Source of the DNA: a virus
Taxonomy: Duplodnaviria > Caudoviricetes
DNA: 64,000 bases
Strand: one strand, 5' to 3'
Virus record (IMG/VR): IMGVR_UViG_3300031760_000033
Location: 1 to 64,000 of that record
Shown here: in pieces, positions 4,096 through 63,998 of the stretch
How the letters are laid out: every line of letters starts with the position of its first letter
Numbering within the stretch: the first letter of the stretch is position 1
Program-made: the position numbers and the translations under genes
Notes under the pieces: generated by a model
The model's input: the letters and a program-made list of their open reading frames with translations, nothing else
What the model was told of the DNA's origin: nothing
Databases searched by the model: none

Positions 4096-4121
4096 CTTAA
4101 TTTCTATAATTAAATCCGGTG

Positions 4122-4313: not shown

Positions 4314-4321
4314 TATCTTTG
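4314..4321 (+). promoter_or_regulatory. Bacteroidota -7 promoter element, head/tail operon
   Basis: TATCTTTG 35 nt upstream of the 4356 ATG. Confidence 0.7.
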
Positions 4322-4355
4322 CCGCTCGAAAAGTATTCACTAAAATTAAATTCAC

Positions 4356-5069: not shown

Positions 5070-5081
5070 ATTCAATTAACA

Positions 5082-5948: not shown

Positions 5949-5970
5949 TTAAAAAAGAAAGGAGATTACC

Positions 5971-9888: not shown

Positions 9889-9919
9889 TCGTAGGTTGAC
9901 TTAACGTCTCATTATCAGG

Positions 9920-9957
9920 GAAAGGGAGAGGTCGAGTACCTTCTCCCTTTCTTTCTT
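9920..9957 (+). terminator. Rho-independent terminator
   Basis: GAAAGGGAGAGGT-CGAGT-ACCTTCTCCCTTTC stem-loop followed by a T-rich tract. Confidence 0.7.
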
Positions 9958-9974
9958 AAAAACAAACGAATATC

Positions 9975-10751
9975 ATGCCAATAATAAGGACAAAAACAGG
10001 ACGGAAGTTGCTGAAAAACGCAAGAAATCTCTTTGTGCTTCCGTATCGCTATGACACCACGTTGTCGCAGTATGTGTTGGGCCAGAACCTTTACGACCTG
10101 TCGGCCATCATCGGCGACAGTATCACTCTGGAGCAGAGCGACGGAGACACCCAGACGAAAGAGAACGAGTTTACCAACGAAGCCCTAGTCAAGAACGTAA
10201 CGACAGGGGAATGGAAGTTCACGGCTCAGTGCTTGGACTTGCAGAACTCCGTATTGAAGGCTTTGTTCATGGCTTACACAAACGATACCTATGGTGCTGC
10301 CGCATTGCGTCCGGAATACGAGACGCTGTACGCACTGATTATGGTCAGGTTTTCTGATACGAGCACACCTGATGTCTGGCTACCGAAGGTACTTCTGAAC
10401 AGCAAACTCCTATTGCAGCAGATGAAGACAAGAGGCTCTCAGGGTAATGTCAGTGGCACGTTGTTCTCCAGCCGGTGCGGTATCATCCAGTCTTCCTCTC
10501 AGGCGCAAGGTCATGCTATCCATCAACTCATGCCTCTTGCAGACAATATTGCAGGAACGAATGTCTATACGCCGAATGTGCCTGTTTTGTTTGCTCCTCA
10601 GGCCCATCGAGTCATCGTTTTCAACCACAGGGCCGAGGAGGACGGAGAAACTGTCTTTGACACCCCGAATCCCGCGACGACTGGTAATCAGGATTGTTGC
10701 GGACACAACATCGTCGTGTCGGACGATAATCCGGCTGTGGCTGTAATTTAG
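9975..10751 (+). CDS. Tail tube protein paralog
   Basis: Aligns by eye to 9211-9888 (YDLSAIIGDS..QCLDLQN vs YDIHDIVGDT..QCLDFQN). Confidence 0.65.
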   Translation: MPIIRTKTGRKLLKNARNLFVLPYRYDTTLSQYVLGQNLYDLSAIIGDSITLEQSDGDTQTKENEFTNEALVKNVTTGEWKFTAQCLDLQNSVLKALFMAYTNDTYGAAALRPEYETLYALIMVRFSDTSTPDVWLPKVLLNSKLLLQQMKTRGSQGNVSGTLFSSRCGIIQSSSQAQGHAIHQLMPLADNIAGTNVYTPNVPVLFAPQAHRVIVFNHRAEEDGETVFDTPNPATTGNQDCCGHNIVVSDDNPAVAVI

Positions 10752-14600: not shown

Positions 14601-17422
14601 GTATGCTGTCCCTGATTAAAGAAATGAGGTCAGAGTATGACAAGCTGGCCAAGTCTGCATACGGATATGCAAAGAGTGAGGCAACTGTAAGAGAGTCGTA
14701 TAAGCAGTCGGTTAAAGAGATTTTGGGTAAGGCAGGTATAACCGACTACGACTTTACTACCAATGCAGGAATGATTGCTGCGCTTGAAAAGGTAATGGAA
14801 TATGCCACAAAGTTAGGCCCCGAGGCTGCCGCAGAAGTACAAAAGTACATTGACCAACTTGAAACAGAAATAACCATCAATGCACAAGTGCGCATCCGCG
14901 AGGACTTCGGACGCCAGATGGAGGAGGCTTTCAATGACTACGACCTCACACTCGAATTGCAAAACCTCGGAATCTCTGAGGATATGGCGAAAAACCTTTT
15001 CCCAGACTTGGACTACACATCCATAGGCAAGTTGCAGGAGATAATGAAGGATTTTTATGACTCCCGCCAAACAAAAGACGAGAAGGGAAATGTATTATTT
15101 TCCGTGAAAGACTTGGAGGAGTACAGGAAGTGGGCTGACAAAATTGACGCCGAAATACTTAAAGCCAGAAAAGAGAAGGTAAAGCAGTACAGTAAATACC
15201 TCGAAAAAGAGTATAGCGAGAGGGCTAAACTGGAAATGAAACACGCGCAGGATATTGCCTTCGTAACTGCAAATATTACTGATAAGGCCCAGCGTAAGAA
15301 TATTATAGAAAATATAAACAGAAAGTATCAAAACGACCTGAATGACTTAAACTGGAGGTCGTTCAAAGAGAGTGATTTTTATGTGGAAATGATGGACGAT
15401 ATATCATCACTCCCAAGAGAATATATGCAGATGATGCTTGATAAAATTGAGGAGATTTTACAGCATCCAGAGACTCTCTCGCCCCGTGCTTTGAAAGAAG
15501 CCATCAATGCTCGTCAAAAGGTTTTAGAAGCCCAAATGAACTTGGAACCTTTGGATGTTATGCGCTCTTCCCTTACAACTATAAGGGAGGCTCAGCAGGA
15601 TAAAGAGGTTGGTGGTAAGAATTGGAAACAAACCAAAGAAAACATCAATAAGGCTGTAGCGGAACAAGCTGAACTGATACAAGGTTATGACAACGAGATA
15701 CAGCGTTTGCAGACTTTGCAGGGTGAACTTGCTGGGTACGAAAAAGCCTTGGAGAACTTACAGAAGGCTGATTCAAATGTTGATATTCCTCTACTGAATA
15801 GAGTTCTCGGACTTGACGAGAATGGCAAGATAACATCAATGGAAGACCTGTCGGATGATGCAATACAGGAAGCCATTGACCGATTGACAACAGAAAACAC
15901 TCAGGAAAAAGCAAAATACGATGCGACCGTTCAGACTGATGAAATGAACGCTCGTGCGGTAGAAATCAGTGATAGAGAAAGGATAATAAAGTTACTTACC
16001 GATGAGTTGACAGCGAGAAGAGAGCTTTCAAATTATCAGATGTCAGATGCAGCAACCACGGCTGTCGCAACTGGCCAAACATCAACAAGTGTTGGCTCTG
16101 AGATTCAGGTTGTTCAAGGTAAAAAAGACACTTCTGTAAAAAAGATACAGAATTTCAAGCAATATCTTGAAGCGTTCACCCAATTTGATGCCGCGTTTGC
16201 AAAGTTTAATGCTGCAATCAATTCTACATTGAACGCTGTTGCTGGTATGGGTAACGCTTTCTATGATATGTTCGATGCTCTTGGATGTAAGACCGATGCT
16301 CTGACAGAAGGATGGAAAGAGTTTGGCAATACGATGATTAGTAGTATTACCAATGCCCTCACAATGATACCGATGATGGTCGCGGCATTTACCGCAGCCG
16401 GCATAGCTATCAATTCTGCTATGAGTATCATCGGTCTTATCGCCGAAGCTCTGAACTTGCTGATGACCGCTATTACTGCAATATCCAAACTGCACGATGC
16501 TGGGTATGAGAAGGAGATTGAGAACCAGCAAAAGAAGATTGATGAGTTGAAATCTGCCTATGAGCGTCTGGAGAAGGCCATAGAGAAGACTTGGACCACG
16601 ATGTCCTATATCGACACCTACAATCAGCAGGTCGAGAATATCAAGCAGCAGATAGAGGCTCTGGAGGCCCAGCGTAGCGCAGAAAACTCCAAAAAGAACA
16701 CTGATGAGGACAAGATACGCGAGTACGGCGACTCCATACAAGAGGCATACGACGAACTGGAGGAACTGGAGCAGAAGCGTATCGAGGTGTTCGGCGGTGT
16801 CGGAGAGGTCAACTACAGGAGTGCTGCCGAGGAATTTGTCTCTGCATGGAAGGATGCCTTCCTTGAAACCGGCGACGGTCTGGAGGCATTGCAGGAACAT
16901 TTCGATGAGTTCTTGCAGGAGTGGTTTGTGAAACAGGCCACGATGCGTATTGCCGGTGCTATGCTGGAACGTACTTTCCGAATGATTGACGAATCGGTCA
17001 ATGAGAGTAGCGAGGGTGGTGTGGCCGTTACTATGGCAGAACTACAGGCCATCCGGGATGAGTTTGCTACTCAGGCCCCGCTTATCTCCGAGGCTTTGGA
17101 GGAGTTGGCTGGTATGTGGGACCTCGGTAACGGAGAAGGCTCTCTCAGCGGCCTTGCAGCCGGCATACAGGGCATGACCGAAGAACAAGCAAATATCCTC
17201 GAAGCATATTGGAACAGTGTCAGGATGTACACTGCAAACCTCGATGTGAATGTCGAGCGTATTGCCAATATTCTTGGCGCCGGCGGCTCCGCAACCAACC
17301 CTCAGTTACAGCAGTTGCAGATAATAGCGCAGCACACTCAGGCCATTCATACACTGCTTGACAGTGTTACAAGAAGCGGACATCCGCAGGGAGGTCTTGG
17401 TATAAAGGTGTTTAACAACTAA
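11624..17422 (+). CDS. Tape measure protein
   Basis: 1932 aa, helical; tape-measure-domain-like segment (ALQSPFT..LADVSAGLG..LILAYGQVKA..SEIRQF); hydrophobic segments; follows the chaperone. Confidence 0.9.
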   Translation: MADNVATALKNLNKELTEADVKIRAAQGDSQALFDAIVRGVGISKDAFRSLVSELSGTDIKGARTIDIVTRLVDENGRKLTPASIKATIENITKDNKPQTLGLFQYKTSDLNTLQQMLAMSKKDAADLLSTVLKISNTSVGLNKTQGTAYSNALASRIKEEARARNKIIKLQERQLQLEQAIDRASSNKSGKTKFEGQMRSVADLNKELAKTARLISQQNAILQGSGRGQNVAKALGLGTAKKEADMLNNSLSKTIGLAQRLGYAFGIAFSAQGLVQFGRKLVETRGEFELQQVALRSILQNKQVADEIWDKTMQAALQSPFTAMQLTKYTKQLAAYRIETEKLFDTTKRLADVSAGLGVDMQRLILAYGQVKAANYLRASEIRQFTEAGVNILGELSTYLSKTRGEMISTAQVMDMVQKRMVKFEDVEAIFKRMTDAGGIFYEMQYIQSQTVKGQLNKLHDAYDQMLNNIGKANQGAIRDLVGLLNNIVKNWREWKTVIDLIAWPLIISTIYKFGRGLMYANASAILTKKSINGVTRAGARMQVMMKSLYTTMASNPWLAIAIAIAAATVALINHAKQVKFVQDQIMEQNTRLYETQEQLKGYQTTIENNNKAIKDNKTATDSNKLSTDELNKKKEENREILAKLTNDYPELVKNMKLEEDGTITLTDAITKYNDELERQMTLKNILAQNSGGSWLGDLFSDTYTTNLTEYMEGLSKLKGELISAQSMATTLQMRMHLAGEDNLPFYGALKQIKDLDLSDIEKAAGQYRNIIQSLYSDVLTGYTGEHNTPVYERSYVGGAKKYMSELPQLSSFPHDAPTAKKAMEENADVFMGMFEESISQISDYEKIITEKYNGDVAAFIADNTELINKGIVEGNADVVSTIRTVLQTQGGATTKEAKVWYNKVLNEYLTFHNAHAKIAALEAQVSAEREKKYKNQDHQLIADAQREIEEIKNSLIGVEEIDFFASSAKTNTNGTGGEDGKGDKTKENASRMLSLIKEMRSEYDKLAKSAYGYAKSEATVRESYKQSVKEILGKAGITDYDFTTNAGMIAALEKVMEYATKLGPEAAAEVQKYIDQLETEITINAQVRIREDFGRQMEEAFNDYDLTLELQNLGISEDMAKNLFPDLDYTSIGKLQEIMKDFYDSRQTKDEKGNVLFSVKDLEEYRKWADKIDAEILKARKEKVKQYSKYLEKEYSERAKLEMKHAQDIAFVTANITDKAQRKNIIENINRKYQNDLNDLNWRSFKESDFYVEMMDDISSLPREYMQMMLDKIEEILQHPETLSPRALKEAINARQKVLEAQMNLEPLDVMRSSLTTIREAQQDKEVGGKNWKQTKENINKAVAEQAELIQGYDNEIQRLQTLQGELAGYEKALENLQKADSNVDIPLLNRVLGLDENGKITSMEDLSDDAIQEAIDRLTTENTQEKAKYDATVQTDEMNARAVEISDRERIIKLLTDELTARRELSNYQMSDAATTAVATGQTSTSVGSEIQVVQGKKDTSVKKIQNFKQYLEAFTQFDAAFAKFNAAINSTLNAVAGMGNAFYDMFDALGCKTDALTEGWKEFGNTMISSITNALTMIPMMVAAFTAAGIAINSAMSIIGLIAEALNLLMTAITAISKLHDAGYEKEIENQQKKIDELKSAYERLEKAIEKTWTTMSYIDTYNQQVENIKQQIEALEAQRSAENSKKNTDEDKIREYGDSIQEAYDELEELEQKRIEVFGGVGEVNYRSAAEEFVSAWKDAFLETGDGLEALQEHFDEFLQEWFVKQATMRIAGAMLERTFRMIDESVNESSEGGVAVTMAELQAIRDEFATQAPLISEALEELAGMWDLGNGEGSLSGLAAGIQGMTEEQANILEAYWNSVRMYTANLDVNVERIANILGAGGSATNPQLQQLQIIAQHTQAIHTLLDSVTRSGHPQGGLGIKVFNN

Positions 17423-17434
17423 AAACAAAATACA

Positions 17435-17998
17435 ATGGCAGACATTAACATCCTATCACCATTCATCCTCTCCTTCGAGGGAGGTTTTGCTAACCACCCG
17501 GCAGACAAGGGCGGTGCGACTAACAAAGGGGTCACGATTGCCACATGGCGTAAAGTTGGTTACGACAAGGATGGCGACGGCGACATCGACGTGGACGACC
17601 TGAAACTGATAACCGACCAAGAGGCTGTTGATGCAGTTCTCAGGCCCCACTACTGGAACCGCTGGAAGGCCGACCAAATCAAGAGTCAGTCTCTCGCGAA
17701 CATCCTTGTCGATTGGGTTTGGGGTAGCGGCGCACACGGAATCAAGATACCACAGCAGCTCCTCGACGTTCCGGCTGACGGCATTGTCGGCCCGCAAACT
17801 CTCGCGGCCCTCAACGCCAAGAAGCCGGAGGCTTTCTTCAATCTCATCAAGAACAGAAGGGAGCAATTCTTCAATACCATCGTCAAAAAAGACCCGTCTC
17901 AGAAGGTATTTTTGAAAGGATGGCTGAGAAGACTCAATTCGATAAACTTTGGTTATCTGAAAGATAACCGTGGTCGAGTCATTCGGTTCAAAGAATAA
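17435..17998 (+). CDS. Endolysin, glycoside hydrolase family 108 with PG-binding domain
   Basis: EGGFANHPADKGGATNKGVT catalytic motif; C-terminal FLKGWLRR. Confidence 0.9.
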   Translation: MADINILSPFILSFEGGFANHPADKGGATNKGVTIATWRKVGYDKDGDGDIDVDDLKLITDQEAVDAVLRPHYWNRWKADQIKSQSLANILVDWVWGSGAHGIKIPQQLLDVPADGIVGPQTLAALNAKKPEAFFNLIKNRREQFFNTIVKKDPSQKVFLKGWLRRLNSINFGYLKDNRGRVIRFKE

Positions 17999-18022
17999 TT
18001 TTCGCAAGTTGAAATATTTTTG

Positions 18023-18030
18023 TATTTTTG
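18023..18030 (+). promoter_or_regulatory. Bacteroidota -7 promoter element
   Basis: TATTTTTG upstream of 18073. Confidence 0.55.
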
Positions 18031-18072
18031 CAGCGAAATAGGTTCAACTAACACTTAAAATAAACAAACGCA

Positions 18073-18483
18073 ATGTGGTGGCAAACAATCATTATCGACG
18101 TCCTTTCAGTGACATCAATTCTTAGCATTATTGCTATGATTCGGTTCTGGAAACAGAACAAGAAACTCAAAGACAATGAGGTAAAACTCAAAGACAGCGA
18201 AGTGGCCCAATCGAATGTCGAGGCCCAGAAATCAGAAATCAGCTTGGCGAACCTCTATAAAGAGGAAATGCTGAAAGTCATTAACTTACTGAAAGAATCC
18301 GAGACCAAAAACCTCGGTAATCAGAAGGAAATGATGGTGACATTGAAGAACCTCGACAGCCGGATGGAGCGTATGGAGTTGAAGGTCGGCGATATAGAAA
18401 GTTACCTCAACGGACCGTACCATAGGTATCTTGCTGACAAAGAGCAGGAACAGGCACAGCACGAACAAAAAGAGGCACAGTAG
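18073..18483 (+). CDS. Putative holin/antiholin
   Basis: One N-terminal TM helix plus coiled coil, between endolysin and spanin. Confidence 0.5.
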   Translation: MWWQTIIIDVLSVTSILSIIAMIRFWKQNKKLKDNEVKLKDSEVAQSNVEAQKSEISLANLYKEEMLKVINLLKESETKNLGNQKEMMVTLKNLDSRMERMELKVGDIESYLNGPYHRYLADKEQEQAQHEQKEAQ

Positions 18484-18484
18484 T

Positions 18485-19009
18485 ATGCGAGACGGTTTTC
18501 TTTCATGTCATAATAGTTTTTTATTGGTTAGCGGTTTGAGAAAAGCCGCACTGGTGGCAGCATTGATTTGTCTGGCTATCAGTGCGGTCTCTTGCCGTTC
18601 TGTCAAGGAGGTACAGATAGTAACTGACACTTTGGCAGTACACGACACAACCGAGGTCTTCGTCCATGACACAACGAAGATAAAGGAGGTCCGATACGAC
18701 AGTATCGACCGCTTTGTTGAGAAGACCGTGTACGTTGACACCAATGGCGTTGTGCATGAAAAGGAGGTCGAGAAGCTCACCCGCTATATCTATTTGCAGG
18801 ATGAGCAGTACAAGGTGATGGAGTCCTATTACAAGAAAAAGGTCTCTGAGCTGGAGAAGAAGCTCGAAGAGAAGGCAAAAGTGGAGTATGTGGAGAAGGA
18901 GCTAAACTGGTTCCAGAAGACGATGATTGGGCTTGGGTGGTGCTTCATAGCCGCGATTGTAATTTCAGGTATATGCCTGTACTTCAAATTGAAAAGAAAG
19001 GTAACATAA
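18485..19009 (+). CDS. Unimolecular spanin (u-spanin)
   Basis: Lipoprotein signal ending AISAVSC plus C-terminal TM helix (MIGLGWCFIAAIVISGICLYF) with a basic tail. Confidence 0.65.
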   Translation: MRDGFLSCHNSFLLVSGLRKAALVAALICLAISAVSCRSVKEVQIVTDTLAVHDTTEVFVHDTTKIKEVRYDSIDRFVEKTVYVDTNGVVHEKEVEKLTRYIYLQDEQYKVMESYYKKKVSELEKKLEEKAKVEYVEKELNWFQKTMIGLGWCFIAAIVISGICLYFKLKRKVT

Positions 19010-31808: not shown

Positions 31809-33227
31809 ATGAGGGATGTTTCTTTTTTTGAATTGAACGGGCGTATGACTAACGAAGCCTTCGAGAAGGGCCGGTTAGTTAAGAATAAGGTACAATACGC
31901 ATACACGTCATCGAACTACTGGACGTCCACGGAGTACAACACCAACAACGCTTGGAACGTCAACTTCACCAATGGTAACGTCAACAACAACAACAAGTAC
32001 AACTCGTTAACAGTGAGGGCGTGTGCCGCGCTTGATGAAAAAAGAAAAGAGGCTTGGATAGTCGCATTTGATGACTGCTGCCGCCACAAGAAATCTTCCG
32101 ATAACTGCATCAGATACAGAGTAATATACGAAGAAGACCTGTTCATTCTCGCCGCCGAGGTTGAGACGGGCATCTACCAGCCTTCAATATCTGTATGTTT
32201 CTGTGTTACAAGACCTAAACTCAGAGAGGTATTTGCCGCAAACTTCCGAGACCGCATAGTCCACCATTGGCTCATGCTCAAACTCAACCCACTGTTCGAG
32301 CAGAGGTTCGAGGAGCAGGGTAATGTGAGCTTCAACTGCCGCAAGGGTTACGGCACGTTGCGGGCTGTATGGGCGCTCCGCGAGGATATGCGGATAGTCA
32401 GCGAGAACTACACCAGCGACGATTGCTACGTCGGCAGTTTTGACTTCATAGGCTTCTTTATGAGCGCCGACAAAGAGATTCTGCTGGCCCAGCTCAAATG
32501 GTTCGTGTATGAGAAATACAAGGAGCCCGATGTCGATATAGTGTGGAGGACTCTTGAGGTAGTGGTCAGGCACAACCCTGCAAAAAACTGCGTAAAGCAC
32601 GGGAATATACATCTTTTCGACGAGCTGCCTCCGCATAAAACTCTGTTCAAGACTCCAGACGGTAAAGGTATGCCGATTGGCAACCTCACCTCTCAAATAC
32701 TGCTGAACTTCTACCTGTCGTTCTTCGACGAGAAGATGATTGCGTTCTGCAAAAAGCGTGGTGGCCGGTACGAGCGTTTCGTTGACGACTTCACCGTCGT
32801 CATGAAGCGTGTCGAGGATGTCGTGGCCGCGTTCAGGTATGCCGACGAGATTGCAACATCTATGCTGAAAATCAACTTGCACAAAGACAAGGTATATATC
32901 CAGCACTACTCGAAGGGCGTAAAGTTCGTCGGTTACGTCATCAAGTTCAACCGGGTGTACCTCTCCAACAGGACATACGGCGGTTTTCAGAACTGTGTAG
33001 TTCATGCGGCTCGCGTATGCCAGTCCGAGAAGATAGACATCGCGGAGCTGGCCCATATCGCGTCCTCGCTTAACTCATACGTCGGCTTTACCTGCCACAC
33101 CAATGGGTACGCCATGACGACAAAGATACTCTACTCCGAGTCTGCCTTAGGCAGATGCTTCTACTTCAAGACGAAGCGACAAGTGGTAAAAATCAAGAAA
33201 GAATATAAAATACAACCTGTTATATGA
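31809..33227 (+). CDS. DGR reverse transcriptase
   Basis: PKLREVFAANFRDRIVHH, CRKGYGT, GMPIGNLTSQ, RFVDD, GVKFVGY; start codon uncertain. Confidence 0.95.
   Translation: MRDVSFFELNGRMTNEAFEKGRLVKNKVQYAYTSSNYWTSTEYNTNNAWNVNFTNGNVNNNNKYNSLTVRACAALDEKRKEAWIVAFDDCCRHKKSSDNCIRYRVIYEEDLFILAAEVETGIYQPSISVCFCVTRPKLREVFAANFRDRIVHHWLMLKLNPLFEQRFEEQGNVSFNCRKGYGTLRAVWALREDMRIVSENYTSDDCYVGSFDFIGFFMSADKEILLAQLKWFVYEKYKEPDVDIVWRTLEVVVRHNPAKNCVKHGNIHLFDELPPHKTLFKTPDGKGMPIGNLTSQILLNFYLSFFDEKMIAFCKKRGGRYERFVDDFTVVMKRVEDVVAAFRYADEIATSMLKINLHKDKVYIQHYSKGVKFVGYVIKFNRVYLSNRTYGGFQNCVVHAARVCQSEKIDIAELAHIASSLNSYVGFTCHTNGYAMTTKILYSESALGRCFYFKTKRQVVKIKKEYKIQPVI
31903..32030 (+). repeat. DGR template repeat (TR), 128 nt
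   Basis: AAC-rich copy of the VR; lies inside the 5' end of the RT ORF. Confidence 0.97.
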
Positions 33228-33595: not shown

Positions 33596-34060
33596 ATGGG
33601 AAGAAGCTCACAGTATAACCACTATTTCCAGCGTATTGACATTCCGGGCCAGAACGTCATCGACATCGAAGAGTATTTCCCCGGCCTGTTGTACGAAAAA
33701 GCAGATGGAATCAACAATATCGGGAAGACCAAGAATGTCTATACCGAGGAGTATGCCGACAGCGACCGCAAGCGGTATTTCCTGCCGGACGACAACAACT
33801 ATGCCAACGAGGGCACGGAGGTTACGATGACATTCCTTGTCGTCGGCACCCCGGTTGAGAGAGAGACCATCATCCACAATTTCTTCGAGTATATCCGCAA
33901 GGGTGTACACCGCTATTGGGACAACGCCCGCAACCGGGAGTTCGACTTCATAGTAACGAAGGAGTTGAAGGTGGGAGAGGAGCGCTGGCACGGAAGCAAT
34001 CCCTATGCCGAGTTGACGGTCCACATGCAGAACCTCAACGGCTGCACCAGACCTCACTAG
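33596..34060 (+). CDS. Putative distal tail (Dit-like) protein
   Basis: 154 aa, beta-rich; KNVYTEEYADSD..EVTMTFL..RYWDNARNREF; last gene of the late operon. Confidence 0.4.
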   Translation: MGRSSQYNHYFQRIDIPGQNVIDIEEYFPGLLYEKADGINNIGKTKNVYTEEYADSDRKRYFLPDDNNYANEGTEVTMTFLVVGTPVERETIIHNFFEYIRKGVHRYWDNARNREFDFIVTKELKVGEERWHGSNPYAELTVHMQNLNGCTRPH

Positions 34061-35973: not shown

Positions 35974-36261
35974 TTAACCATTAAGAATTTCCATCAAGTC
36001 TTTGTAGTCTTTTGCCAGCTTGCCTTTCCCTTTTATTTTGGGCGTGGAGTGCTGGAGCCTATAGCTGATGTTCCGGGCAGTCATACTAAACTCTTTTGCT
36101 ATAGTTACAATCTTCATGTGCAGCACATTGCGGTACATATAGATTACCATGTCTTTTGCTATATTGTCTGGGTAGTTCTGGTTGAATTTGGCCAGTATAT
36201 CTTTGTATCTTACATTGTAGTAAGCCTCTATGGTCCTAACTATGTCTTCTTGTATAATCAC
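35974..36261 (-). CDS. DnaA domain IV-like HTH protein
   Basis: IVRTIEAYYNV..DIL..AKDMVIYM..IAKEF..RNI; GTG start downstream of the promoter. Confidence 0.55.
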   Translation of the reverse strand: MIIQEDIVRTIEAYYNVRYKDILAKFNQNYPDNIAKDMVIYMYRNVLHMKIVTIAKEFSMTARNISYRLQHSTPKIKGKGKLAKDYKDLMEILNG

Positions 36262-36279
36262 AGGTGTCGAAATTTGGTG

Positions 36280-36287
36280 CAAAGATA
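36280..36287 (-). promoter_or_regulatory. Bacteroidota -7 promoter element
   Basis: TATCTTTG on - strand (TGCGTATCTTTGCACC). Confidence 0.65.
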
Positions 36288-36399
36288 CGCAAATATCTTG
36301 AAACATGAAAAGATTTTTTCATCAATATTTGCTAATATTTTCTATAGTAGTGATTTAGTGCGAGTAATGTATTGCGTAGTATTTGGTGATATTCGTTAG

Positions 36400-36423: not shown

Positions 36424-36807
36424 ATGATAGCACGGGATGTTATTTTGCATGATTACGCTTGGGTAATAACCCTTTTCTTGGACTGCGACACCGACGATGC
36501 GGAGAAGCTGGACGAGTTGCTGTCGGACTACGACCTGACAGAGGAGTTTGTGGAGAAGGTCGGCTGCGGGTATAAAAATATTCACCTTGTCCGGTACAAC
36601 TACGAACAAGGTGAGAGTGTGATTGTTGTTTCCAAGACCACGGATGAGGATGAGTTGCTTGCCATATTGCAGCGCTGTCTTGTTAATACTGCCATTGATA
36701 TGGCGACGTTATTGGGGATGCCGGTTTCCGACATGGTGCCTGATGTGGTGGCTAGGGTGTCGGTCCATACATCCCCAATCGTCATGCCATTGCTTAACCC
36801 TGAATAG
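36424..36807 (+). CDS. Paralog of the HExxH peptidase at 63250-63666, lacking the zinc motif
   Basis: By-eye alignment over its full length; HEVFH is replaced by RCLVN. Confidence 0.65.
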   Translation: MIARDVILHDYAWVITLFLDCDTDDAEKLDELLSDYDLTEEFVEKVGCGYKNIHLVRYNYEQGESVIVVSKTTDEDELLAILQRCLVNTAIDMATLLGMPVSDMVPDVVARVSVHTSPIVMPLLNPE

Positions 36808-46412: not shown

Positions 46413-48557
46413 TTAGAATGGGGCGTCAGGGTTAGGGTCATGCTTAAATTGCTCTTCGTATGGGTCGGTCAGACCTTGGTTGTCGAAATTGGTATTCGGC
46501 ATGATGGGTGCCGGCGGTGCATCCGGGAGTTTGTGATACTCCTCAATGCCTTCTTCCCAATCGTAGTGCATATTCTCGGCACGGCTGTTTTTGAAGCGTT
46601 TTGTCTCAGGTTCGTAGTATAGGCCGACAATGAAGTTTTCGACTCCATAGTCTCGGTTCTTGGCTACCTCTATGATGTTGTTGTAGCCCTCGAAGATAAT
46701 CCTTGATGTCTTGTCTTTGCCCCAGAACTCCGTGGCCCTCTTCTCAAAGTCATCATTGATTCTGTGCAGCAGCAGGAGGTTCCAGCAGATGTTTGTCAGG
46801 TCCGACGTGCCGCTGATACTCTCTTTACGGAGTAACTGGAAGTTTGCCTCCTTACGAGGGTGTGCGATAATCAGAATATGCACATGGTACTTCTTGGCAA
46901 TCTCATCGAGCTTCAACATCAAAGCCTTCTGCTTTTCGTTCATGGTGCCGACGAGGTAGTCAAGCGACAGAGCCATCAGGTTATCAAGTACAATGAATTT
47001 GAGTTTGTACTTGACGATAGCCTCTTCGACGTCTGCAAGTATCTGTTCACAGTTGTTTCCGTAGTTGTTGTTGTAGATGATGAGGCGCTCGTCTAGCCAA
47101 TTCTCAATTTTTGGAATTACGCTGTCTATAGCTTCGTAGGCGTTGTCCCGGCCCTCGACCTTGACGACGTTGTTCTTGCCGGCAGCGGTCTGGCAGAGCC
47201 ATGCCTTGATACGCTTGGCAGGAAGCTCACCGCTCCAGAGTGCCGACGGGATGTCTCGCTGGACGGCATTTAGGAGGAGCTGGTTCAGGATTGCCGTCTT
47301 ACCGCTGGCGTTGATGCCAGAGAGAACGGTTGTCTGTTCCTCGAACAGGCCGCCTATAGCTTTATCTAGAGCGTAGATGCCGGTCTTGATGGAAAAGCGG
47401 TCGCTATCCCTGACAATCTTGATGTCGCGGGCCGTGAGCCATTTCTTACCAAGCTCATCGGTCTCGGCCTTAATCTCCACTGGCTCTGGAGCCGGGCGGT
47501 ACTTTTCATAGTATCGCTGCTTGTACTTGAACTCGTTGTAGTCTTTCTTGTCGTAGGCGTCAGGTTCAAAGTGTAGTCTAAATTCTTTCCAGTGATATTG
47601 TTCGCAATGAGCATGGAAGCACTTAAATTCGATGGCCCCATTGTCATACTGAAAAACCATACTATCGGGGTCTGCATGGTCGGCACCGCCAAAGGGACAT
47701 TCTTTGAGGATGTATCTGGTGCCGGATGATGTTCTGACGGTCCTGTATTCAATGCCATGCTTTGCAAAGAATCCAAGCAAGTCGAATTGTTCACCTCCAT
47801 ACTTGTTTTCCCGTGTAGGTTTGGGAGGTTCCTCCTGAAACAGGGCTGCGACTTTCTCTATATAAATTTTGTCAGTTATCTGAATGGAATCAGGTACTTT
47901 GATGATTTTTGCCATTCTCCACGGACGTTCCGCTGTATTGGCACCCTTTTTGGCATACGTTCCGTAGAGCTTGCAGATTCTCGATGCGTTATCGACTGAT
48001 GTGTCAACATGAACAGAGTCGGTGCTGAACATCATGTCAAGAGCTTTTATAAACCTGTCAACAAGTTTCTCTGACTCCTCATCGTTTTTCAACGCAATCG
48101 GGATTGTAACGTGATAGCCGTTTCCAGAGCGACTAACTATTGGCTCGTAGAACCCCTGCTGAATGAGATAGTCATAGACTCTTCTTGCGACAATGTGTGC
48201 ATCTTTCAGCTGGGCCTCCGTACTACCGGTCCCCGGAACCCTCTCAGGGTCGAAATCGAGAAGGATGAAATCTCTTCCGATGATGTTGTTGTCTTTTGTG
48301 GTTTCTTTCGGGAACTTAATCAAGCGCTCATGCTGCGTTCTATCATAACATTCAGGCGTGATAGAGTTTAGCATGAAGTAGAATTGCAGGGAATCGTTGT
48401 TCGACAGTGGCTCAATATCGCGAATGATGTTGTTTACGTCGCGGTAATATCCACTGTATGTTTCTTTGTTTTTCCCAAGAACACGAATCTCGCATAGCTT
48501 TTGACCGCCATTTTGGAATATCTCCCACCACTTGTATATTTGTTCTCTGTCTATCAT
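46413..48557 (-). CDS. Primase-polymerase (AEP-like) / DnaB-like helicase fusion
   Basis: LLDFD and SRSGNGYH primase motifs; CPF..H..CFHAHC zinc site; SGINASGKT, VLDNLM, IAHPRK helicase motifs. Confidence 0.85.
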   Translation of the reverse strand: MIDREQIYKWWEIFQNGGQKLCEIRVLGKNKETYSGYYRDVNNIIRDIEPLSNNDSLQFYFMLNSITPECYDRTQHERLIKFPKETTKDNNIIGRDFILLDFDPERVPGTGSTEAQLKDAHIVARRVYDYLIQQGFYEPIVSRSGNGYHVTIPIALKNDEESEKLVDRFIKALDMMFSTDSVHVDTSVDNASRICKLYGTYAKKGANTAERPWRMAKIIKVPDSIQITDKIYIEKVAALFQEEPPKPTRENKYGGEQFDLLGFFAKHGIEYRTVRTSSGTRYILKECPFGGADHADPDSMVFQYDNGAIEFKCFHAHCEQYHWKEFRLHFEPDAYDKKDYNEFKYKQRYYEKYRPAPEPVEIKAETDELGKKWLTARDIKIVRDSDRFSIKTGIYALDKAIGGLFEEQTTVLSGINASGKTAILNQLLLNAVQRDIPSALWSGELPAKRIKAWLCQTAAGKNNVVKVEGRDNAYEAIDSVIPKIENWLDERLIIYNNNYGNNCEQILADVEEAIVKYKLKFIVLDNLMALSLDYLVGTMNEKQKALMLKLDEIAKKYHVHILIIAHPRKEANFQLLRKESISGTSDLTNICWNLLLLHRINDDFEKRATEFWGKDKTSRIIFEGYNNIIEVAKNRDYGVENFIVGLYYEPETKRFKNSRAENMHYDWEEGIEEYHKLPDAPPAPIMPNTNFDNQGLTDPYEEQFKHDPNPDAPF

Positions 48558-58076: not shown

Positions 58077-58562
58077 CTAAATTTCGTAATAATTTTTTAA
58101 TGTATTGTAGTTCATTAGGTTGTACTTGAAATATTTTTTCACGGAGCCTCGATAATCACTCCCACAACCGGGATTCCACACGTCGATGGCCCTGTCTATT
58201 TCAAGATTTGGGTTGTGTCGTTCCTGTACGATTTTGAATATGGCATAGCTTCCCTGCCGGTCGTAACGGTCATCGTAATTGAAGCAATCGAACCCTACGA
58301 TGCGGTTGGCTTCGCGAACCATAATTTCTGACAGCTGGAGGCATCCGACCCATCGTCCGCATGGAGATACTGCCGTGTGGTTGAAGTTCGATTCTTGTTT
58401 GGCGAAAGCGAGAGCCATTGCGTTAATTGTGTCCTCGCGTGTCAAGACATACTCCGTTTCTTTCGGAAAGGTGTCCGCAATCGTTTCTTTTTCGTCTTTG
58501 GTGTAGTTGGCACATCCGACCGTTAGAAGTGCCGCAAACACGGCGAAAATTGTTTTCTTCAT
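58077..58562 (-). CDS. Lipoprotein with lysozyme-like / lytic transglycosylase domain
   Basis: Lipobox LTVGC; AFAKQESNFN..VGCLQL. Confidence 0.65.
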   Translation of the reverse strand: MKKTIFAVFAALLTVGCANYTKDEKETIADTFPKETEYVLTREDTINAMALAFAKQESNFNHTAVSPCGRWVGCLQLSEIMVREANRIVGFDCFNYDDRYDRQGSYAIFKIVQERHNPNLEIDRAIDVWNPGCGSDYRGSVKKYFKYNLMNYNTLKNYYEI

Positions 58563-59595: not shown

Positions 59596-60399
59596 TTACT
59601 CGAACAGGCTCAACTGAGTGCCTGTCTTTATTTCTGTCGGGAGTGTGTAGGAGTCCTCAAAATTGTCGACGTGCTCATGCGGTAGAGAGTCCTTCTTGAT
59701 GCGGTAGTGCTTTATCCAGCCTTTCTCGGCTATATCAAGCCACCACTTGCGGCGTTGTTCCTCAACATCCTTTGCGGTCGCCAGTGTGTACTCCCAATAG
59801 GTAGAGAACACGGCGCCGGACACCATGTGCCTCAGGCTGTCAATCTTGAAGAAGGTGAAATGCTCGTAGTCCAGAGTCAGGGCATTGCCGCACGTTACCT
59901 CGCCGGTGACGGAGTTTGTAACAAAGTTGAGCAGAGTCATCTTTGCACACGTCATCGACAGGTCGTTGGCATAAAGCTCTATGTCTTTGCCTTCGTTGCG
60001 GGCAATCTTCAAGGCGTTAAGTAACGTCCTGCCGCTTCCACAGGCCGGGTCGTTCACCGTGGCGCCATCCTCAATGCCAACAATCTCGGACATCAGGAGA
60101 GATACGCTGTCCGGGGTGAAGAATTGGCCCTTCTCTCCGTGGCTGATGCGGCGCATAAACATATCGCCGAGTGGGTCTTTGAAATCCTCAGCTTCCTCGC
60201 CGTAGGCTTGCATGGCGGCAATCATATTCATTTTGAAGTCAGGATTGCTGTTCATGTGTTTGAACAACTCGCGCTGCCTGTCATTTGGATTGTTGCAGAA
60301 GAACTGCAACTGGAGGTCGAGGAAATTGTCGAAGCAGTCAGCAAACTGTGTTCTGCCTCCGATAGATAGCTTCTCGATGCACTTTTCTAAAGAGTCCAT
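59596..60399 (-). CDS. HsdM-like N6-adenine methyltransferase homolog without NPP(Y/F)
   Basis: GQFFTPDSVS and NDPACGSGRTL are present; no NPPY/F anywhere in 267 aa. Confidence 0.75.
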   Translation of the reverse strand: MDSLEKCIEKLSIGGRTQFADCFDNFLDLQLQFFCNNPNDRQRELFKHMNSNPDFKMNMIAAMQAYGEEAEDFKDPLGDMFMRRISHGEKGQFFTPDSVSLLMSEIVGIEDGATVNDPACGSGRTLLNALKIARNEGKDIELYANDLSMTCAKMTLLNFVTNSVTGEVTCGNALTLDYEHFTFFKIDSLRHMVSGAVFSTYWEYTLATAKDVEEQRRKWWLDIAEKGWIKHYRIKKDSLPHEHVDNFEDSYTLPTEIKTGTQLSLFE

Positions 60400-60538: not shown

Positions 60539-60546
60539 TACCTTTG
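60539..60546 (+). promoter_or_regulatory. Bacteroidota -7 promoter element
   Basis: TACCTTTG upstream of the 60597 operon. Confidence 0.6.
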
Positions 60547-60596: not shown

Positions 60597-61550
60597 ATGA
60601 GCGAAACTATCGTAGTTCCCGATAACGGGAGCAACATGAACAACGCATGGCCCTTGCTGGCTATGAACAACGGTGGGTTCGGTGGTCTTGGCAACGGCCT
60701 TGGTGCCGGTGTCGTCGGCTTTATCCTTGGCGCCCTCATCAACGGTAACGGAAATGGACTGTTTGGTAACGGCGGGAATAACGCCGGTGCCGCCGCCGCC
60801 TCTCTTGGCGCACAGGCTACCGCCCTGAACAACACCGACCTCTTGATGAACGCCATCACGAGCAGCGGTGAACGCCAGCATGAGGCGGTCCAGACACTCA
60901 GCACGATGCTCGGTCAGGACTTCAACCTCGTGAACAGCGGCGTCCAGACCGTACAGACATCACTTGCCACCATTGCCGCCAATCAGGGCATGAATGTCAT
61001 GCAGGTCATCAATGCCATCCAGAGTGGCAATACGGCTCTCCAGAGCCAGCTTTGCGAGTGCTGCTGCAATATGAAGCAGCTTGTCACTGAGCAGGGCTAC
61101 CAAGGTCAGCTCCGCACTCTCGAACAGACTGCCGCTATGAACAACGGCTTCGCCGGCGTAAACACCAACATCGCCGCGACCAAGGCCGCACAGGAGCTTG
61201 CCGACTGCAAGCAGACTTACGCACTCACGGACACCATGAACAACCATTACATCGCGCTTGACAATAAGCTCGACGCTATGGAATCTGGACGTAAGGACCG
61301 CGAGATTACGGCCTTGACTGCCAAAATCGCGCAGCTGGAGTCGCAGAACTTCACCACCGCCGCTCTCGGTCAGGCTGTCGCGCCTATCAACGCACAGCTT
61401 GCAGCCCTTGCCCGTGAAGTTGACACCATCAAGTGCAACCAGCTTCCGACGGTCAACGTACAGTGGCCTCAGCTTACCGCCGTCAACACCACTCCTTATG
61501 TGAATGGTGGCTTCTACGGCAACGGTTGGGGCAATGGCCTTTACTTCTAA
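60597..61550 (+). CDS. Gly/Asn-rich protein with CCC motif and coiled coil
   Basis: 317 aa; hydrophobic GxxxG segment, LCECCCN, heptad repeats; biased codons. Confidence 0.8.
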   Translation: MSETIVVPDNGSNMNNAWPLLAMNNGGFGGLGNGLGAGVVGFILGALINGNGNGLFGNGGNNAGAAAASLGAQATALNNTDLLMNAITSSGERQHEAVQTLSTMLGQDFNLVNSGVQTVQTSLATIAANQGMNVMQVINAIQSGNTALQSQLCECCCNMKQLVTEQGYQGQLRTLEQTAAMNNGFAGVNTNIAATKAAQELADCKQTYALTDTMNNHYIALDNKLDAMESGRKDREITALTAKIAQLESQNFTTAALGQAVAPINAQLAALAREVDTIKCNQLPTVNVQWPQLTAVNTTPYVNGGFYGNGWGNGLYF

Positions 61551-61568
61551 TTAGGAAAGGAGTAAGAA

Positions 61569-61907
61569 ATGAACAATCCATTCAGTAATATCACTACGAA
61601 TGTCAACGGGATTCCGTACCTGTCGAGCACCAACATCACTGTTACTGACACTGCTGTTGACATCGCTCTTGGATTCCGTCGCATCCAGCCTGTCGGACAT
61701 CTGACGGTACGGATTGCCTCGTCCATCCCTGACGGAACCACAGGCACATTGCCAGTGACGCTGACCCTCAATGGCACCAGCCGTGCCTTGACGTTCTTCA
61801 ACGGAACGCCTGTGACGGCTGCCGACCTTACGGGAACCGGCGTGATTACCGTGTTTAACGACCGCTTCAACGGCATCTTGCAGCTGACGTCGCCGCTCAC
61901 GGCTTAA
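61569..61907 (+). CDS. Hypothetical beta-rich protein
   Basis: 112 aa in operon. Confidence 0.7.
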   Translation: MNNPFSNITTNVNGIPYLSSTNITVTDTAVDIALGFRRIQPVGHLTVRIASSIPDGTTGTLPVTLTLNGTSRALTFFNGTPVTAADLTGTGVITVFNDRFNGILQLTSPLTA

Positions 61908-61939
61908 CAAAAGTTATTAACAATTAAACGAGTAAAAAG

Positions 61940-62470
61940 ATGTTTGGAACACTCAGAGCAGGCTCGCTCCTGTATATCCTTAACAAAGGAGAAAACCCCA
62001 GCCTTACGGTTGGGCAGGTCCTCTCGACGACACCGCCGAGAGCAAAAGTAGGGAACCAGTTTATGCCGAACCCTCTCCAGATGGAGCAGGTTATCGACAT
62101 AACAGTCAAGGTCGGCGACGACACGAAGACATTTTCCAATGTCAATACGGCATTGTCGATTGTCGATACCGGTGCCAACAACTACGTCATATCTGACGAC
62201 AAGACAGCAATCACCAACGAGGTGGAAGCTTATGGAACACTGTCGCAGAACGCATTGAACAGTGTGCCGTACCACAAGAAAGTGGTCGCCGCTTGCAAAC
62301 AGATGATGTTGGAGTTGAACCCCAACTTGCAGAAAGAAGCCGACCGAGACACAAAAATCAGCAACCTTGAAAAAGAACTTGCTGAAATCAAGGGTGGTTT
62401 CTCAGAACTTACGAACTTTCTCAAAGGTGCCCTCGGAACACCTCAAACCTCGTTGATTAAACCTCAGTAA
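61940..62470 (+). CDS. Hypothetical protein with C-terminal coiled coil
   Basis: 176 aa in operon. Confidence 0.7.
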   Translation: MFGTLRAGSLLYILNKGENPSLTVGQVLSTTPPRAKVGNQFMPNPLQMEQVIDITVKVGDDTKTFSNVNTALSIVDTGANNYVISDDKTAITNEVEAYGTLSQNALNSVPYHKKVVAACKQMMLELNPNLQKEADRDTKISNLEKELAEIKGGFSELTNFLKGALGTPQTSLIKPQ

Positions 62471-62472
62471 TT

Positions 62473-62709
62473 ATGGGCTACACAATCATTCACAGAAAAG
62501 ACAAGGAGAAGATGGCCGACATGGTGGAGGACATTCTCTACACCGCCGGTCGCCTGATGTCCTGTGTCGATGAACTCGAAGACTCCAGCATGATGGGTGA
62601 GCGTCGTTACCCGGACGGTATGGGGATGCGTGACGGTGGTCGTATGGGCTACCGTTGGGACGACCCCTACATGATGGGTGAACGCCGTGGCATCGTCAGA
62701 CGTTACTAG
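62473..62709 (+). CDS. Small protein with repeated MMGERR motif
   Basis: 78 aa; followed by a hairpin. Confidence 0.7.
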   Translation: MGYTIIHRKDKEKMADMVEDILYTAGRLMSCVDELEDSSMMGERRYPDGMGMRDGGRMGYRWDDPYMMGERRGIVRRY

Positions 62710-62723
62710 ACGTTCCAAACGCG

Positions 62724-62757
62724 GGGTAGGAGGCTCCGGCCTCCTGCCCTCTTTATT
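62724..62757 (+). terminator. Terminator-like hairpin
   Basis: GGGTAGGAGGC-TCCG-GCCTCCTGCCC then TCTTTATTT. Confidence 0.7.
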
Positions 62758-62824
62758 TGCAGAGTAAATCACGCTGCAAGGCAATTAACAGAGTACCAAT
62801 AACTTTTTATCTTCACAGAAAATC

Positions 62825-63238
62825 ATGGGTAAATCAAAACAACCTCTCGATATGTACGACATCATCCCGGAAGAGCAACGGGCGTACCTGATGAACTACG
62901 GCAAGCACTTCAACGAGAAGATGTGCAAGTTTGCCGTCAGCCTGATGCTGGACCGTAACGGAAAGAAGATTTCGTTGATGAAGAAGGATGACGTTCTCGC
63001 GAAACTCAAAGAGAACGGAGTTACGCTGGAGAACGATGTCATGTGCGACAGCACTTTCGTCTATCACATGGCCCTGAGCGACTTCATGGGAAGCAGCATC
63101 GAGGACGAGAAGCACATCTGTCTCTATGTCAAAGACCTCATCGACGACGAGGACCAGCGGGACGGCTTCATTTTTGCCCGCTTTGTAAGTGACTGCATCA
63201 ACAACGGAGAGCCTATCGATTGGGCCGAAATGCTGTAA
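62825..63238 (+). CDS. Hypothetical acidic protein
   Basis: 137 aa; YLMNYGKHFN..YVKDLIDDED..PIDW. Confidence 0.7.
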   Translation: MGKSKQPLDMYDIIPEEQRAYLMNYGKHFNEKMCKFAVSLMLDRNGKKISLMKKDDVLAKLKENGVTLENDVMCDSTFVYHMALSDFMGSSIEDEKHICLYVKDLIDDEDQRDGFIFARFVSDCINNGEPIDWAEML

Positions 63239-63249
63239 GTGCATAAGTT

Positions 63250-63666
63250 ATGAAAGTCCAGCGCTTATATCTCGGCCCGTACAGATGGCAGATGACCGTG
63301 TTCTACGACACGGCCCCTGAAGACTGCGACACCATCCTGAAATGCCTCGCAGACATCGGATGCGAAAGACGCAAACTCGGACAAGCGGAAGAAAACCTCC
63401 GTGGAGGGGCCAGAAATACCGGCCTGACGTTCTCAAATCGCCAGAATAGGGAAAGTATCGTCGTGCTGTCCGAAAGCTCGTCAGAAGCCGAATTTGCGAA
63501 TACTTGGTTCCATGAGGTCTTCCATGCCGCTGTACACATAGCCGAGGCAGACGGTCTCGGATGTAATGGTGAGCCTGTGGCGTACATCGGAGGCTACATT
63601 GCCATGAGGATGCAGCCACAGGCATCACTCTTCATGTGTTCAAAATGCCACAAATATGAAATGTAG
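63250..63666 (+). CDS. HExxH zinc metallopeptidase-like protein
   Basis: WFHEVFHAAVH..EPVAYIGG, with a candidate third ligand Glu; C-terminal CSKCH. Confidence 0.75.
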   Translation: MKVQRLYLGPYRWQMTVFYDTAPEDCDTILKCLADIGCERRKLGQAEENLRGGARNTGLTFSNRQNRESIVVLSESSSEAEFANTWFHEVFHAAVHIAEADGLGCNGEPVAYIGGYIAMRMQPQASLFMCSKCHKYEM

Positions 63667-63760
63667 GAGAATTAGGACTCGGTTGACTCCTCTTCTGGAG
63701 ATTCTACAGGACGATTGTCTGGTTGACCTTCACCGACTGGCTCATCTATGGTATCTTTGA
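63656..63760 (+). CDS. Small ORF (34 aa)
   Basis: MKCRRIRTRLTPLLEILQDDCLVDLHRLAHLWYL overlapping the peptidase stop. Confidence 0.35.
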   Translation: MKCRRIRTRLTPLLEILQDDCLVDLHRLAHLWYL

Positions 63761-63768: not shown

Positions 63769-63900
63769 TGTCGTTATATGACAACATATTGACGCTTCAT
63801 TGTTCCGACCAATGTCGATAACTCCACGTCCGCTATCCCGTCCACCACGGGTGATATTTCTCCTATGAGATTCTGCTTCTGCAAGCCGAATCTCTTTATA
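63769..63900 (-). ncRNA. Putative TnpB omega-RNA (scaffold plus guide)
   Basis: Overlaps the tnpB 3' end; ends GAAGCGTCAA (boundary 63789) followed by TATGTTGTCATATAACGACA; 5' limit is approximate. Confidence 0.55.
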
Positions 63901-63998
63901 TTCACTGCTGCTAGCAAGTCGCGGTCGTTGTGCCGTCCACACTGCGGGCAATCCCACTCTCGGTCTTTTAGTGTCAAGTTTTTATTGATATACCCGCA
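63774..63998 (-). mobile_element. tnpB: IS200/IS605-family TnpB, 3' part (continues beyond the window)
   Basis: [34 protein letters not shown]: zinc finger plus RuvC-III. Confidence 0.9.

Follow-up and report, generated by a model that had tools for sequence, protein, structure and literature searches.

The stretch of DNA considered here, hereafter the window, comprises the opening 64 kb of an IMG/VR virus record of 75,726 bp (IMGVR_UViG_3300031760_000033) and derives from a tailed phage of the Bacteroidota type. Near its end, at 60597-63760 on the + strand, lies a cassette of seven genes, g1 to g7, which forms an island flanked by two - strand blocks. Here, I argue that this cassette is most likely a horizontally mobile, non-essential operon of Bacteroidales phages, and that its products build a multi-protein structure rather than an enzymatic pathway. 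A preliminary description had placed seven co-oriented open reading frames (ORFs) at the locus, and every one of them was found where it had been placed, on the + strand. Together with two predicted control elements, they are:

60539-60546, + strand: Bacteroidetes-type -7 promoter box TACCTTTG (TAnnTTTG), 58 nt before the g1 ATG, by consensus match only
60597-61550, + strand: g1, 317 amino acids (aa)
61569-61907, + strand: g2, 112 aa
61940-62470, + strand: g3, 176 aa
62473-62709, + strand: g4, 78 aa
62723-62760, + strand: intrinsic-terminator-like hairpin with a T-rich tail, in the g4/g5 gap
62825-63238, + strand: g5, 137 aa
63250-63666, + strand: g6, 138 aa, with the motif HEVFH
63656-63760, + strand: g7, 34 aa

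The intergenic gaps from g1 to g4 measure 18, 32 and 2 nt and that between g5 and g6 11 nt, g6 and g7 overlap by 11 nt, and the one wide gap, of 115 nt on the 3' side of g4, is the one that bears the hairpin. The stem of the latter (62723-62750) has 12 bp, 8 of them G-C pairs, and an RNAfold energy of -23.7 kcal/mol. A GC hairpin followed by a T-run occupies the same g4/g5 junction in at least ten relatives, with differing sequences; the terminator is thus conserved by position, not by sequence. A TAnnTTTG box likewise stands 53-80 nt upstream of g1 in 17 of 22 related loci. The picture of a self-contained operon, tightly spaced (gaps of 2-32 nt outside the terminator-bearing one) and equipped with a predicted promoter and an internal terminator of its own, is therefore upheld.

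The strong codon bias attributed to the cassette as a whole applies to one part of it. The effective number of codons (ENC) is 39.5 for g1, a capsid-like value (35.7 in the probable capsid gene, 38.6 in a probable tail gene, 50-58 in most other genes); it is 36.3 for g4, a short gene, and 42.3 for g5, while g2, g3 and g6 lie in the ordinary range of 47-50. Only g1 is counted as strongly biased, because the values of g2, g3 and g6 are ordinary and g4 is short. From the placement of the terminator and the codon bias of g1, the layout predicts plentiful g1-g4 and less g5-g7: the first four products would be made in bulk, and read-through would supply the smaller amounts of g5, g6 and g7.

Proteins of the cassette

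The first protein, g1, matches phrog_16490 at 1e-24 and belongs to a family with 678 cluster representatives at E<=1e-3 (50% identity clusters). Read from its N-terminus, it has a conserved acidic tail, a Gly-rich hydrophobic segment (residues ~30-56) and heptad repeats in four conserved segments; next come the invariant CCC at 155-157 and the conserved motif TVxVxxPxL. The protein ends in a Gly/aromatic tail, which is Cys-rich in crAss-like copies. The protein is rich in A, N and G, and the region 76-215 holds 11% DEKR and 39% Q/N/S/T; its description as a Gly/Asn-rich coiled-coil protein with a CCC cluster is apt. A hydrophobic Gly/Trp-rich 19-mer is present in 50 of 50 aligned homologs, with a median Wimley-White score of -5.9 kcal/mol and values reaching -17; the N-tail has a net charge of about -2, and in many homologs an Arg comes right after the hydrophobic segment.

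Against the PDB, the g1 profile yields 81 hits at E<1, the best at E 0.015 and none significant; among the 60 listed, almost all fall on influenza HA2 (35-91) or on HR1 of coronavirus S2. These sub-threshold hits (E 0.015-0.3) explain the labels found in GenBank ("spike protein/glycoprotein", "outer capsid protein/viral fiber"), and the likeness to HA2 and S2 is treated here as one of composition and layout, not of homology.

Three g1 homologs, with related loci designated by L numbers, contain one or two in-frame stop codons: L001 5740-6723 (cr109_1), L002 5755-6732 (cr4_1) and L023 9119-9985 (a ~33-kb contig). The stops align with Gln or Lys positions, and in L023 gene callers split g1 into products of 154 and 133 aa; other contigs with the same g2 as L023 reach ~100 kb. 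From the alignments, the stops are taken to be recoded TAG, as in other late genes of recoded crAss-like phages.

The second protein, g2 (phrog_31654 at 2e-11), belongs to the most widely distributed of the cassette families recovered and is as a rule the best-conserved product of the cassette: 2283 clusters (90% identity) are recovered at E<=1e-3, many members lie on contigs of ~100 kb, and among the best 120, identity to the window protein does not fall below 78%. Its predicted structure (predicted local distance difference test score, pLDDT, 81.6) is an all-beta sandwich of a rare fold, in keeping with the earlier label of beta protein. The only PDB chain with Z>=5 for this model is the Pa193 tail fibre gp47, whose residues 181-338 (beads II-III) align over 96 residues with Z 5.5, below the guard value of 8, and a root-mean-square deviation of 3.7; the same chain is Foldseek rank 1, and the next Z is 2.8. 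The deposited gp47 chain is itself a fitted AlphaFold model (PMC11456595). In the ESM Atlas, g2 retrieves only unnamed viral clusters, and g5 nothing useful.

A case in point for the relation between the first two proteins concerns their losses. Of 26 loci, L008 and L013 alone have no g2, and these two are also the only ones with a short g1 tail devoid of Gly or aromatic residues; since they belong to different sub-lineages, they look like two independent joint losses of g2 and of the g1 tail. Along the same line, Cys-rich g1 tails are mostly paired with a Cys-bearing g2. By this pattern of co-variation, g2 is the probable partner, or cap, of the g1 tail.

The preliminary description had called g3 (phrog_28898 at 9e-27) a coiled-coil protein, which fits the model: the predicted fold (pLDDT 77.6) has an SH3/Tudor/KOW-like beta barrel (1-87) and, after it, three helices (88-164). 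In BFVD the model matches the third gene of the cr109_1 trio (E 1.4e-6); against the PDB, Foldseek and VIA-align return generic SH3/Tudor/KOW barrels and helices only (Z <=6.4).

The next protein, g4, is a disordered peptide of low complexity in which Met, Arg, Gly, Asp and Tyr abound and whose C-terminus is basic; the term repeat peptide suits it. A counterpart of similar composition (66-102 aa) occupies the equivalent place in every locus read by eye, and BLAST recovers it in just 15 of 26. Next to it, g5 (phrog_38431 at 4e-33) is a clear member of Pfam DUF7841 (PF25223), with 71.0 bits over a gathering cut-off of 25.2 (70.7 bits in the genome scan), and DUF7841 was also identified adjoining g1 in cr109_1, C3_41T2LP, L019 and L025; as no function is known for this family, membership explains nothing. 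Its pI of 4.7 fits the earlier designation as an acidic protein. The true start of g5 may be Met10, at 62852, and the ESM Atlas record begins at residue 10. In cr109_1 and cr4_1 the DUF7841 protein is extended C-terminally by a stretch of g4-like composition with a basic end; g4 and g5 are thus a single protein in Suoliviridae.

By its motifs, g6 is a small zincin-like protein. Residues H88, E89, H92 and E108 are nearly invariant among relatives, and all 21 loci carrying g6 keep the C-terminal CxxC and the HExxH with, 15-16 residues further on, a Glu. With motif and third ligand conserved, the description as a HExxH peptidase fits, the activity being a predicted one. Matches to the SprT-like, M78 and M76 families remain sub-threshold, and no peptidase family threshold is reached; PF18818 (MPTase-PolyVal) has no match at E<=10 across the whole 75.7-kb genome and is not among the Pfam matches of 23 g6 homologs. 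The depositors of phage C3_41T2LP annotated its g6 homolog as a PolyVal metallopeptidase. In related loci g5 and g6 are tightly coupled, often with a 4-nt overlap; g6, which stands behind the terminator, is at the same time the least constant cassette part, being absent from the three Suoliviridae loci. As for g7, it is conserved as an ORF of 33-34 aa only in the closest subgroup (L003, L004, L005 and L008), unrelated ORFs taking its position in other loci, which makes it the weakest of the seven, a doubtful small gene.

A second, catalytically dead copy of g6 had been reported at 36424. The ORF is real and is a distant homolog without metal ligands; beside it lies a divergent gene.

36424-36807, + strand: g6 paralog, 22% identity to g6 (E 2e-8), metal-binding motif lost
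35974-36306, - strand: small helix-turn-helix (HTH)-like gene, divergent from the paralog, with a sub-threshold match to Bac_DnaA_C (E 3e-4)

A box of its own, TATCTTTG, is found at 36400, 17 nt before the paralog start. The paralog sits in the 34-37 kb junction region, which in L004 and L005 holds the whole cassette; these two relatives are without the two-gene insert of HTH-like gene and paralog, and no other cassette remnants were found beside the paralog. In C3_41T2LP, small genes annotated as 'chromosomal replication initiator' lie directly downstream of the cassette and two genes upstream of it.

Recurrence, mobility and genomic setting

The same cassette, with the same gene order, was found in at least 25 other loci. 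The order g1-g2-g3-(g4)-g5-g6 is kept in the IMG/VR loci L003-L013 at 25-95% identity, in the cultured Bacteroides phage C3_41T2LP, in the contigs L019, L020 and L025, and in six contigs of Bacteroidales metagenome-assembled genomes (MAGs). Among crAss-like phages, Steigviridae cr116_1 has g1, g2, g3, a 74-aa ORF and a g6 homolog between the lysis genes and the gp31-like and major capsid protein (MCP) genes, and Suoliviridae cr109_1, cr4_1 and cr1_1 have DUF7841-g1-g2-g3 downstream of the holin; the latter three versions keep g5, g1, g2 and g3 and miss g6. The statement that similar clusters recur in gut phages with no function assigned to them is hence substantiated, and the genes clearly co-occur elsewhere. 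Complete cassettes are also present on the contigs L027 (239 kb), L031 (256 kb) and L033 (126 kb), binned as Bacteroidales/Prevotellaceae MAGs. In L019, the gene after g6 (4617-4949) has a weak precomputed match to PF21825 (Sequestin).

The cassette is not confined to one genomic position. The copies in crAss-like phages lie inside the late structural/lysis block, and only in Steigviridae-type loci do they adjoin gp31-like and MCP genes; in the window, C3_41T2LP and L025, the neighbours are DNA-metabolism genes. Holin or endolysin genes lie one to three genes from the cassette in five crAss-like or ~100-kb contexts, an adjacency that may reflect function or merely a permissive insertion site. 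In L004 and L005, relatives of 83-84 kb, the cassette occupies the junction equivalent to 34-37 kb of the window, not 60 kb. In L008, the flanks are ~95% identical to the window, yet g1 is only 46% identical and g2 is missing. Finally, crAss001, a member of the same family as cr116_1 whose virion structure has reportedly been solved, carries no cassette gene in the homologous region examined (14-50 kb, from the portal to an RNA polymerase subunit), gp30 (endolysin) being directly followed by gp31 and the capsid gene. Because this region of crAss001 is without the cassette, whose positions in relatives vary and whose composition is mosaic, the cassette is a mobile accessory module and not a core set of virion, replication or lysis genes. 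In L005 (84 kb), two homologs of the window gene at 33596-34060 (154 aa), at 4170-4655 and 9740-10210, flank the cassette together with two - strand genes; the pair looks like a duplication tied to insertion or rearrangement.

Searches outside these families were negative. The region has no DNA match among 50,697 phage records, the PDB gives nothing significant for the single proteins or for profiles of g6, g5, g1 and g2, and NCBIfam gives nothing for the cassette proteins. The models of PADLOC-DB 2.0 have no match in g1-g7 at E<=0.1, and the paralog at 36424-36807 alone drew matches, two of them at chance level. No paper on the cassette was found in the literature on DUF7841, C3_41T2LP and crAss phages. 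It had been noticed that no gene of the seven resembles virion, replication or lysis genes; in fact g1-g7 match none of these known families nor any defence family, and no cassette part has a characterised relative.

The remainder of the window identifies the phage and its own lysis genes:

359-1939, - strand: portal
2458-4164, - strand: large terminase
5971-7221: probable major capsid gene
11624-17422: tape-measure protein
17435-17998, + strand: endolysin (phrog_315 at 8e-34)
18073-18483, + strand: protein of 136 aa with an N-terminal transmembrane (TM) segment and a coiled coil
18431-19009, + strand: ORF with a lipoprotein-like signal, overlapping the preceding TM/coiled-coil gene
31809-33227: reverse transcriptase of a diversity-generating retroelement
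46413-48557, - strand: DnaB-like helicase

The terminase shares just 28-30% identity with its counterparts in Bacteroides phage C3_41T2LP and in LoVEphage. The head genes (4356-7221) are far from the cassette, which in the window and in C3_41T2LP stands amid early or DNA-metabolism genes, not structural ones. The stretch 17435-19009 (+), embedded in the tail-gene block, looks like the phage's own lysis cassette, the last two genes resembling an i-spanin/o-spanin pair by architecture only. A lipoprotein-like protein of 161 aa at 58077-58562 (-), with a sub-threshold match to the SLT_4 transglycosylase (E 0.003), is a candidate second cell-wall enzyme beside the endolysin.

On either side of the cassette, the divergent neighbour gene at 59596-60399 (-) has an N6_Mtase domain (PF02384, 3e-15) that covers only profile positions 1-140 of 311, and a TnpB-like gene of 398 aa at 63774-64970 (-), of which the window holds 63774-64000, converges on the cassette end; a homolog of its C-terminus with 84% identity lies ~5 kb from the cassette in L005. 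Elsewhere, ARAGORN calls an 80-nt tRNA-Val(CAC) at 42806-42885 (-), with the anticodon reported at position 33.

A proposed stalk at the envelope and its alternatives

A signature of bulk expression, an attenuating terminator, a hydrophobic anchor, heptads and a Cys cluster, a small dedicated partner of the tail, two paired helpers and an optional protease together suggest a multi-protein structure centred on g1. Most likely the product is a coiled-coil stalk with a hydrophobic anchor, accompanied by a small cap protein, helpers and an optional small zinc protease, and the reading ranked first, with a probability of roughly 0.4, is that of a stalk-and-cap assembly which inserts into a membrane and works at the host envelope. 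In such an assembly, the four heptad segments of g1 would drive its oligomerisation, the invariant CCC may knot the chains to one another or bind a metal, and the Gly/Trp-rich hydrophobic segment would insert into the membrane. The acidic N-tail and the Arg after the segment imply that most of g1 would remain cytoplasmic, in the compartment in which g2-g6 are made; no signal peptide or lipobox was seen by inspection in g1-g7. The Gly/aromatic tail of g1 would be capped by g2, g3 would join through its helices, g4 and g5 would act as a pair, possibly as an assembly helper, and g6 would be an optional trimming or clearing protease. As a guess, the biological role would be that of a late-infection envelope accessory, be it in membrane remodelling or fusion, in the exclusion of other phages or in the tuning of release. 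This reading is ranked first because the hydrophobic segment is universal, because the flanking charges would keep the bulk of g1 in the cytoplasm together with its signal-less partners, and because the virion types of the carriers are unrelated: the window phage has a tape-measure protein, and the crAss-like phages, which are podoviruses, differ.

Several observations weigh against it. The segment of the window g1 scores merely -0.4 kcal/mol on the Wimley-White scale, so that membrane insertion of this copy is uncertain. In the window, 42 kb separate the cassette from the endolysin (17435-17998) and the spanin-like pair, and its adjacency to lysis genes elsewhere may mark no more than a permissive insertion spot. 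Moreover, g2 finds its sole structural match in the bead region of a tail fibre (Z 5.5), and charge-poor, N/Q/T-rich heptads such as those of g1 are typical of extracellular fibres.

The last two points lead to an accessory virion fibre, in which g1 would supply a trimeric coiled-coil shaft held together by a CCC knot, g2 a bead or cap at its far end, g3 the particle adaptor, g4 and g5 assembly chaperones and g6 a maturation protease, the whole being as dispensable as the head fibres of phi29 and the fibritin of T4 are. It is a possible reading, ranked second because of the fibre-bead match of g2, which stands well above the next one and is rank 1 in Foldseek, of the fibre-like composition of g1 (charge-poor and Q/N/S/T-rich at 76-215), and of the late-gene context in crAss-like phages, where the copies in the structural/lysis block would share in-frame TAG codons with other late genes; the high codon bias of g1 suits it as well. 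Yet the match of g2 falls short of the guard value, and the matched chain is a fitted model. A TM-grade hydrophobic segment in all homologs is unusual in a soluble fibre, podoviruses and a tape-measure phage use the same cassette yet share no docking site, and g2, unlike receptor-binding tips, which are normally the most variable parts, is usually better conserved than the other cassette proteins. The position amid early or DNA-metabolism genes in the window and in C3_41T2LP does not favour a structural part either.

The latter position would also suit a membrane-tethered or cytoplasmic organiser of replication or assembly, or a condensate scaffold driven by the Gly/Asn/aromatic ends of g1 and the Arg/Tyr-rich g4; phi29 p16.7, with a TM segment, a coiled coil and DNA binding, offers a precedent. 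The predicted topology, which keeps the bulk of g1 in the cytoplasm, the sticker-like Arg/Tyr/Gly/acidic composition of g4, a weak resemblance of the g3 barrel to Tudor/KOW/CarD-type interaction domains (Z 4.5-6.4) and the neighbouring DNA-metabolism genes in the window, C3_41T2LP and L025 all agree with it. What speaks for it is, however, composition, no nucleic-acid-binding family was detected among the cassette proteins, and the crAss-like cassettes sit with late genes; an organiser is improbable.

The preliminary description had favoured a protease-activated effector in membrane action, defence or lysis-lysogeny signalling, in which g6 would cleave a cassette protein to activate it, with toxicity as a further possible outcome, and the paralog at 36424 might regulate the system. 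The complete HExxH...E in all 21 loci carrying g6, the tight coupling of g5 and g6, often with a 4-nt overlap, and the very existence of a catalytically dead paralog are in line with such a proposal. But g6 stands behind an attenuating terminator and is missing in Suoliviridae, whose versions nonetheless keep g5, g1, g2 and g3, and no cleavage target can be named, so that the protease-activated mechanism is left unsupported. A role in defence or in lysis-lysogeny signalling fares no better: no PADLOC model matches g1-g7, and the cassette is common in virulent crAss-like phages, which have no place for a lysis-lysogeny switch. A structural role would account better than a signalling one for the high-expression signature of g1, and control by the paralog, tied to the cassette by 22% identity alone, is not sustained. 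An effector of this kind is accordingly the least probable of the readings weighed here.

A bolder reading makes g1 a phage membrane fusogen of an undescribed kind, with the class I-like layout of hydrophobic peptide, HR1, Cys cluster, HR2 and aromatic tail, with g2 as its own cap, g3 as adaptor, and helpers and a protease of its own. Such a protein would have no need of spanins; it might, for instance, fuse envelopes or form vesicles when phages are released, or be directed at neighbouring cells. This is doubtful; if true, a fusogen spreads as a cassette among the most abundant phages of the human gut.

The cassette matters whichever of these readings is correct. It is very common and is carried both by crAss-like phages, the dominant human gut viruses, and by unrelated Bacteroidales phages; it comprises ~3 kb of tightly organised genes that are predicted to be highly expressed, six of whose seven proteins have no function-bearing family, and it moves between lineages as a unit. 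Whatever its products build, gut phages have here an accessory device in common, one that present-day annotation overlooks or wrongly labels "spike glycoprotein" or "outer capsid protein". As Bacteroides phage C3_41T2LP is a cultured carrier, grown on B. uniformis, the question of what the cassette does is directly testable.

Comparison with known systems

A few known identities were considered and rejected. The cassette is not a prohead protease with its scaffold, for although MCP-adjacent in Steigviridae-type loci, it stands well apart from the head genes of the window, and the part of crAss001 that was inspected has no copy. Nor is it the precursor and protease of a ribosomally synthesised and post-translationally modified peptide (RiPP-like), given that g4 is fused to DUF7841 in Suoliviridae and that those versions have no protease. 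The spanin/lysis system of the window phage is accounted for by its own endolysin and spanin-like pair at 17.4-19.0 kb; a core virion part is at odds with the crAss001 region lacking the cassette and with the differing morphology of the carriers; and a known defence system with the PADLOC scan of g1-g7, which gave no match.

Among peptidases, g6 shares with the minimal zincins (SprT-like/Wss1, MPTase-PolyVal PF18818, ImmA/IrrE M78) the HExxH with a downstream Glu, the small size and the occurrence in phages. It differs from them as a stand-alone protein of 130-150 aa with a conserved C-terminal CxxC; it has no PF18818 match, and its SprT-like and M78 matches are below threshold.

The layout of g1 recalls spanins (Rz/Rz1, the T1 u-spanin gp11) and class I fusion proteins (influenza HA2, coronavirus S2), with the same succession of a hydrophobic Gly-rich peptide, Q/N-rich heptads, a Cys cluster, charged heptads and an aromatic tail, and in crAss-like genomes the cassette adjoins holin and endolysin genes. 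As g1 has no significant hit to HA2 or S2, however, the resemblance to fusion proteins may be compositional. Unlike spanins, the cassette has no lipoprotein partner, and the flanking charges of g1 point to a cytoplasmic and not a periplasmic bulk, the opposite of an N-in/C-out anchor. The window phage has an endolysin and a spanin-like pair of its own, 42 kb from the cassette, and crAss001 has lysis genes and, in the region examined, no cassette.

A further comparison is with coiled-coil phage fibres. The head fibre gp8.5 of phi29, the fibritin of T4 and the tail needle of P22/Sf6 are coiled-coil fibres with a terminal beta domain and dedicated helpers. The cassette differs from them in having shaft and cap as separate genes, in the TM-grade hydrophobic segment on every g1, in its occurrence in unrelated virion types, in the lack of sequence homology between the two, and in lying outside the structural module of the window phage. 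A weak likeness to a fibre is seen in the match of g2 to the bead domains of Pa193 gp47 (Z 5.5). What the cassette and these fibres have in common is a heptad-repeat shaft combined with a small beta protein and, as predicted for the cassette, dispensability and high expression.

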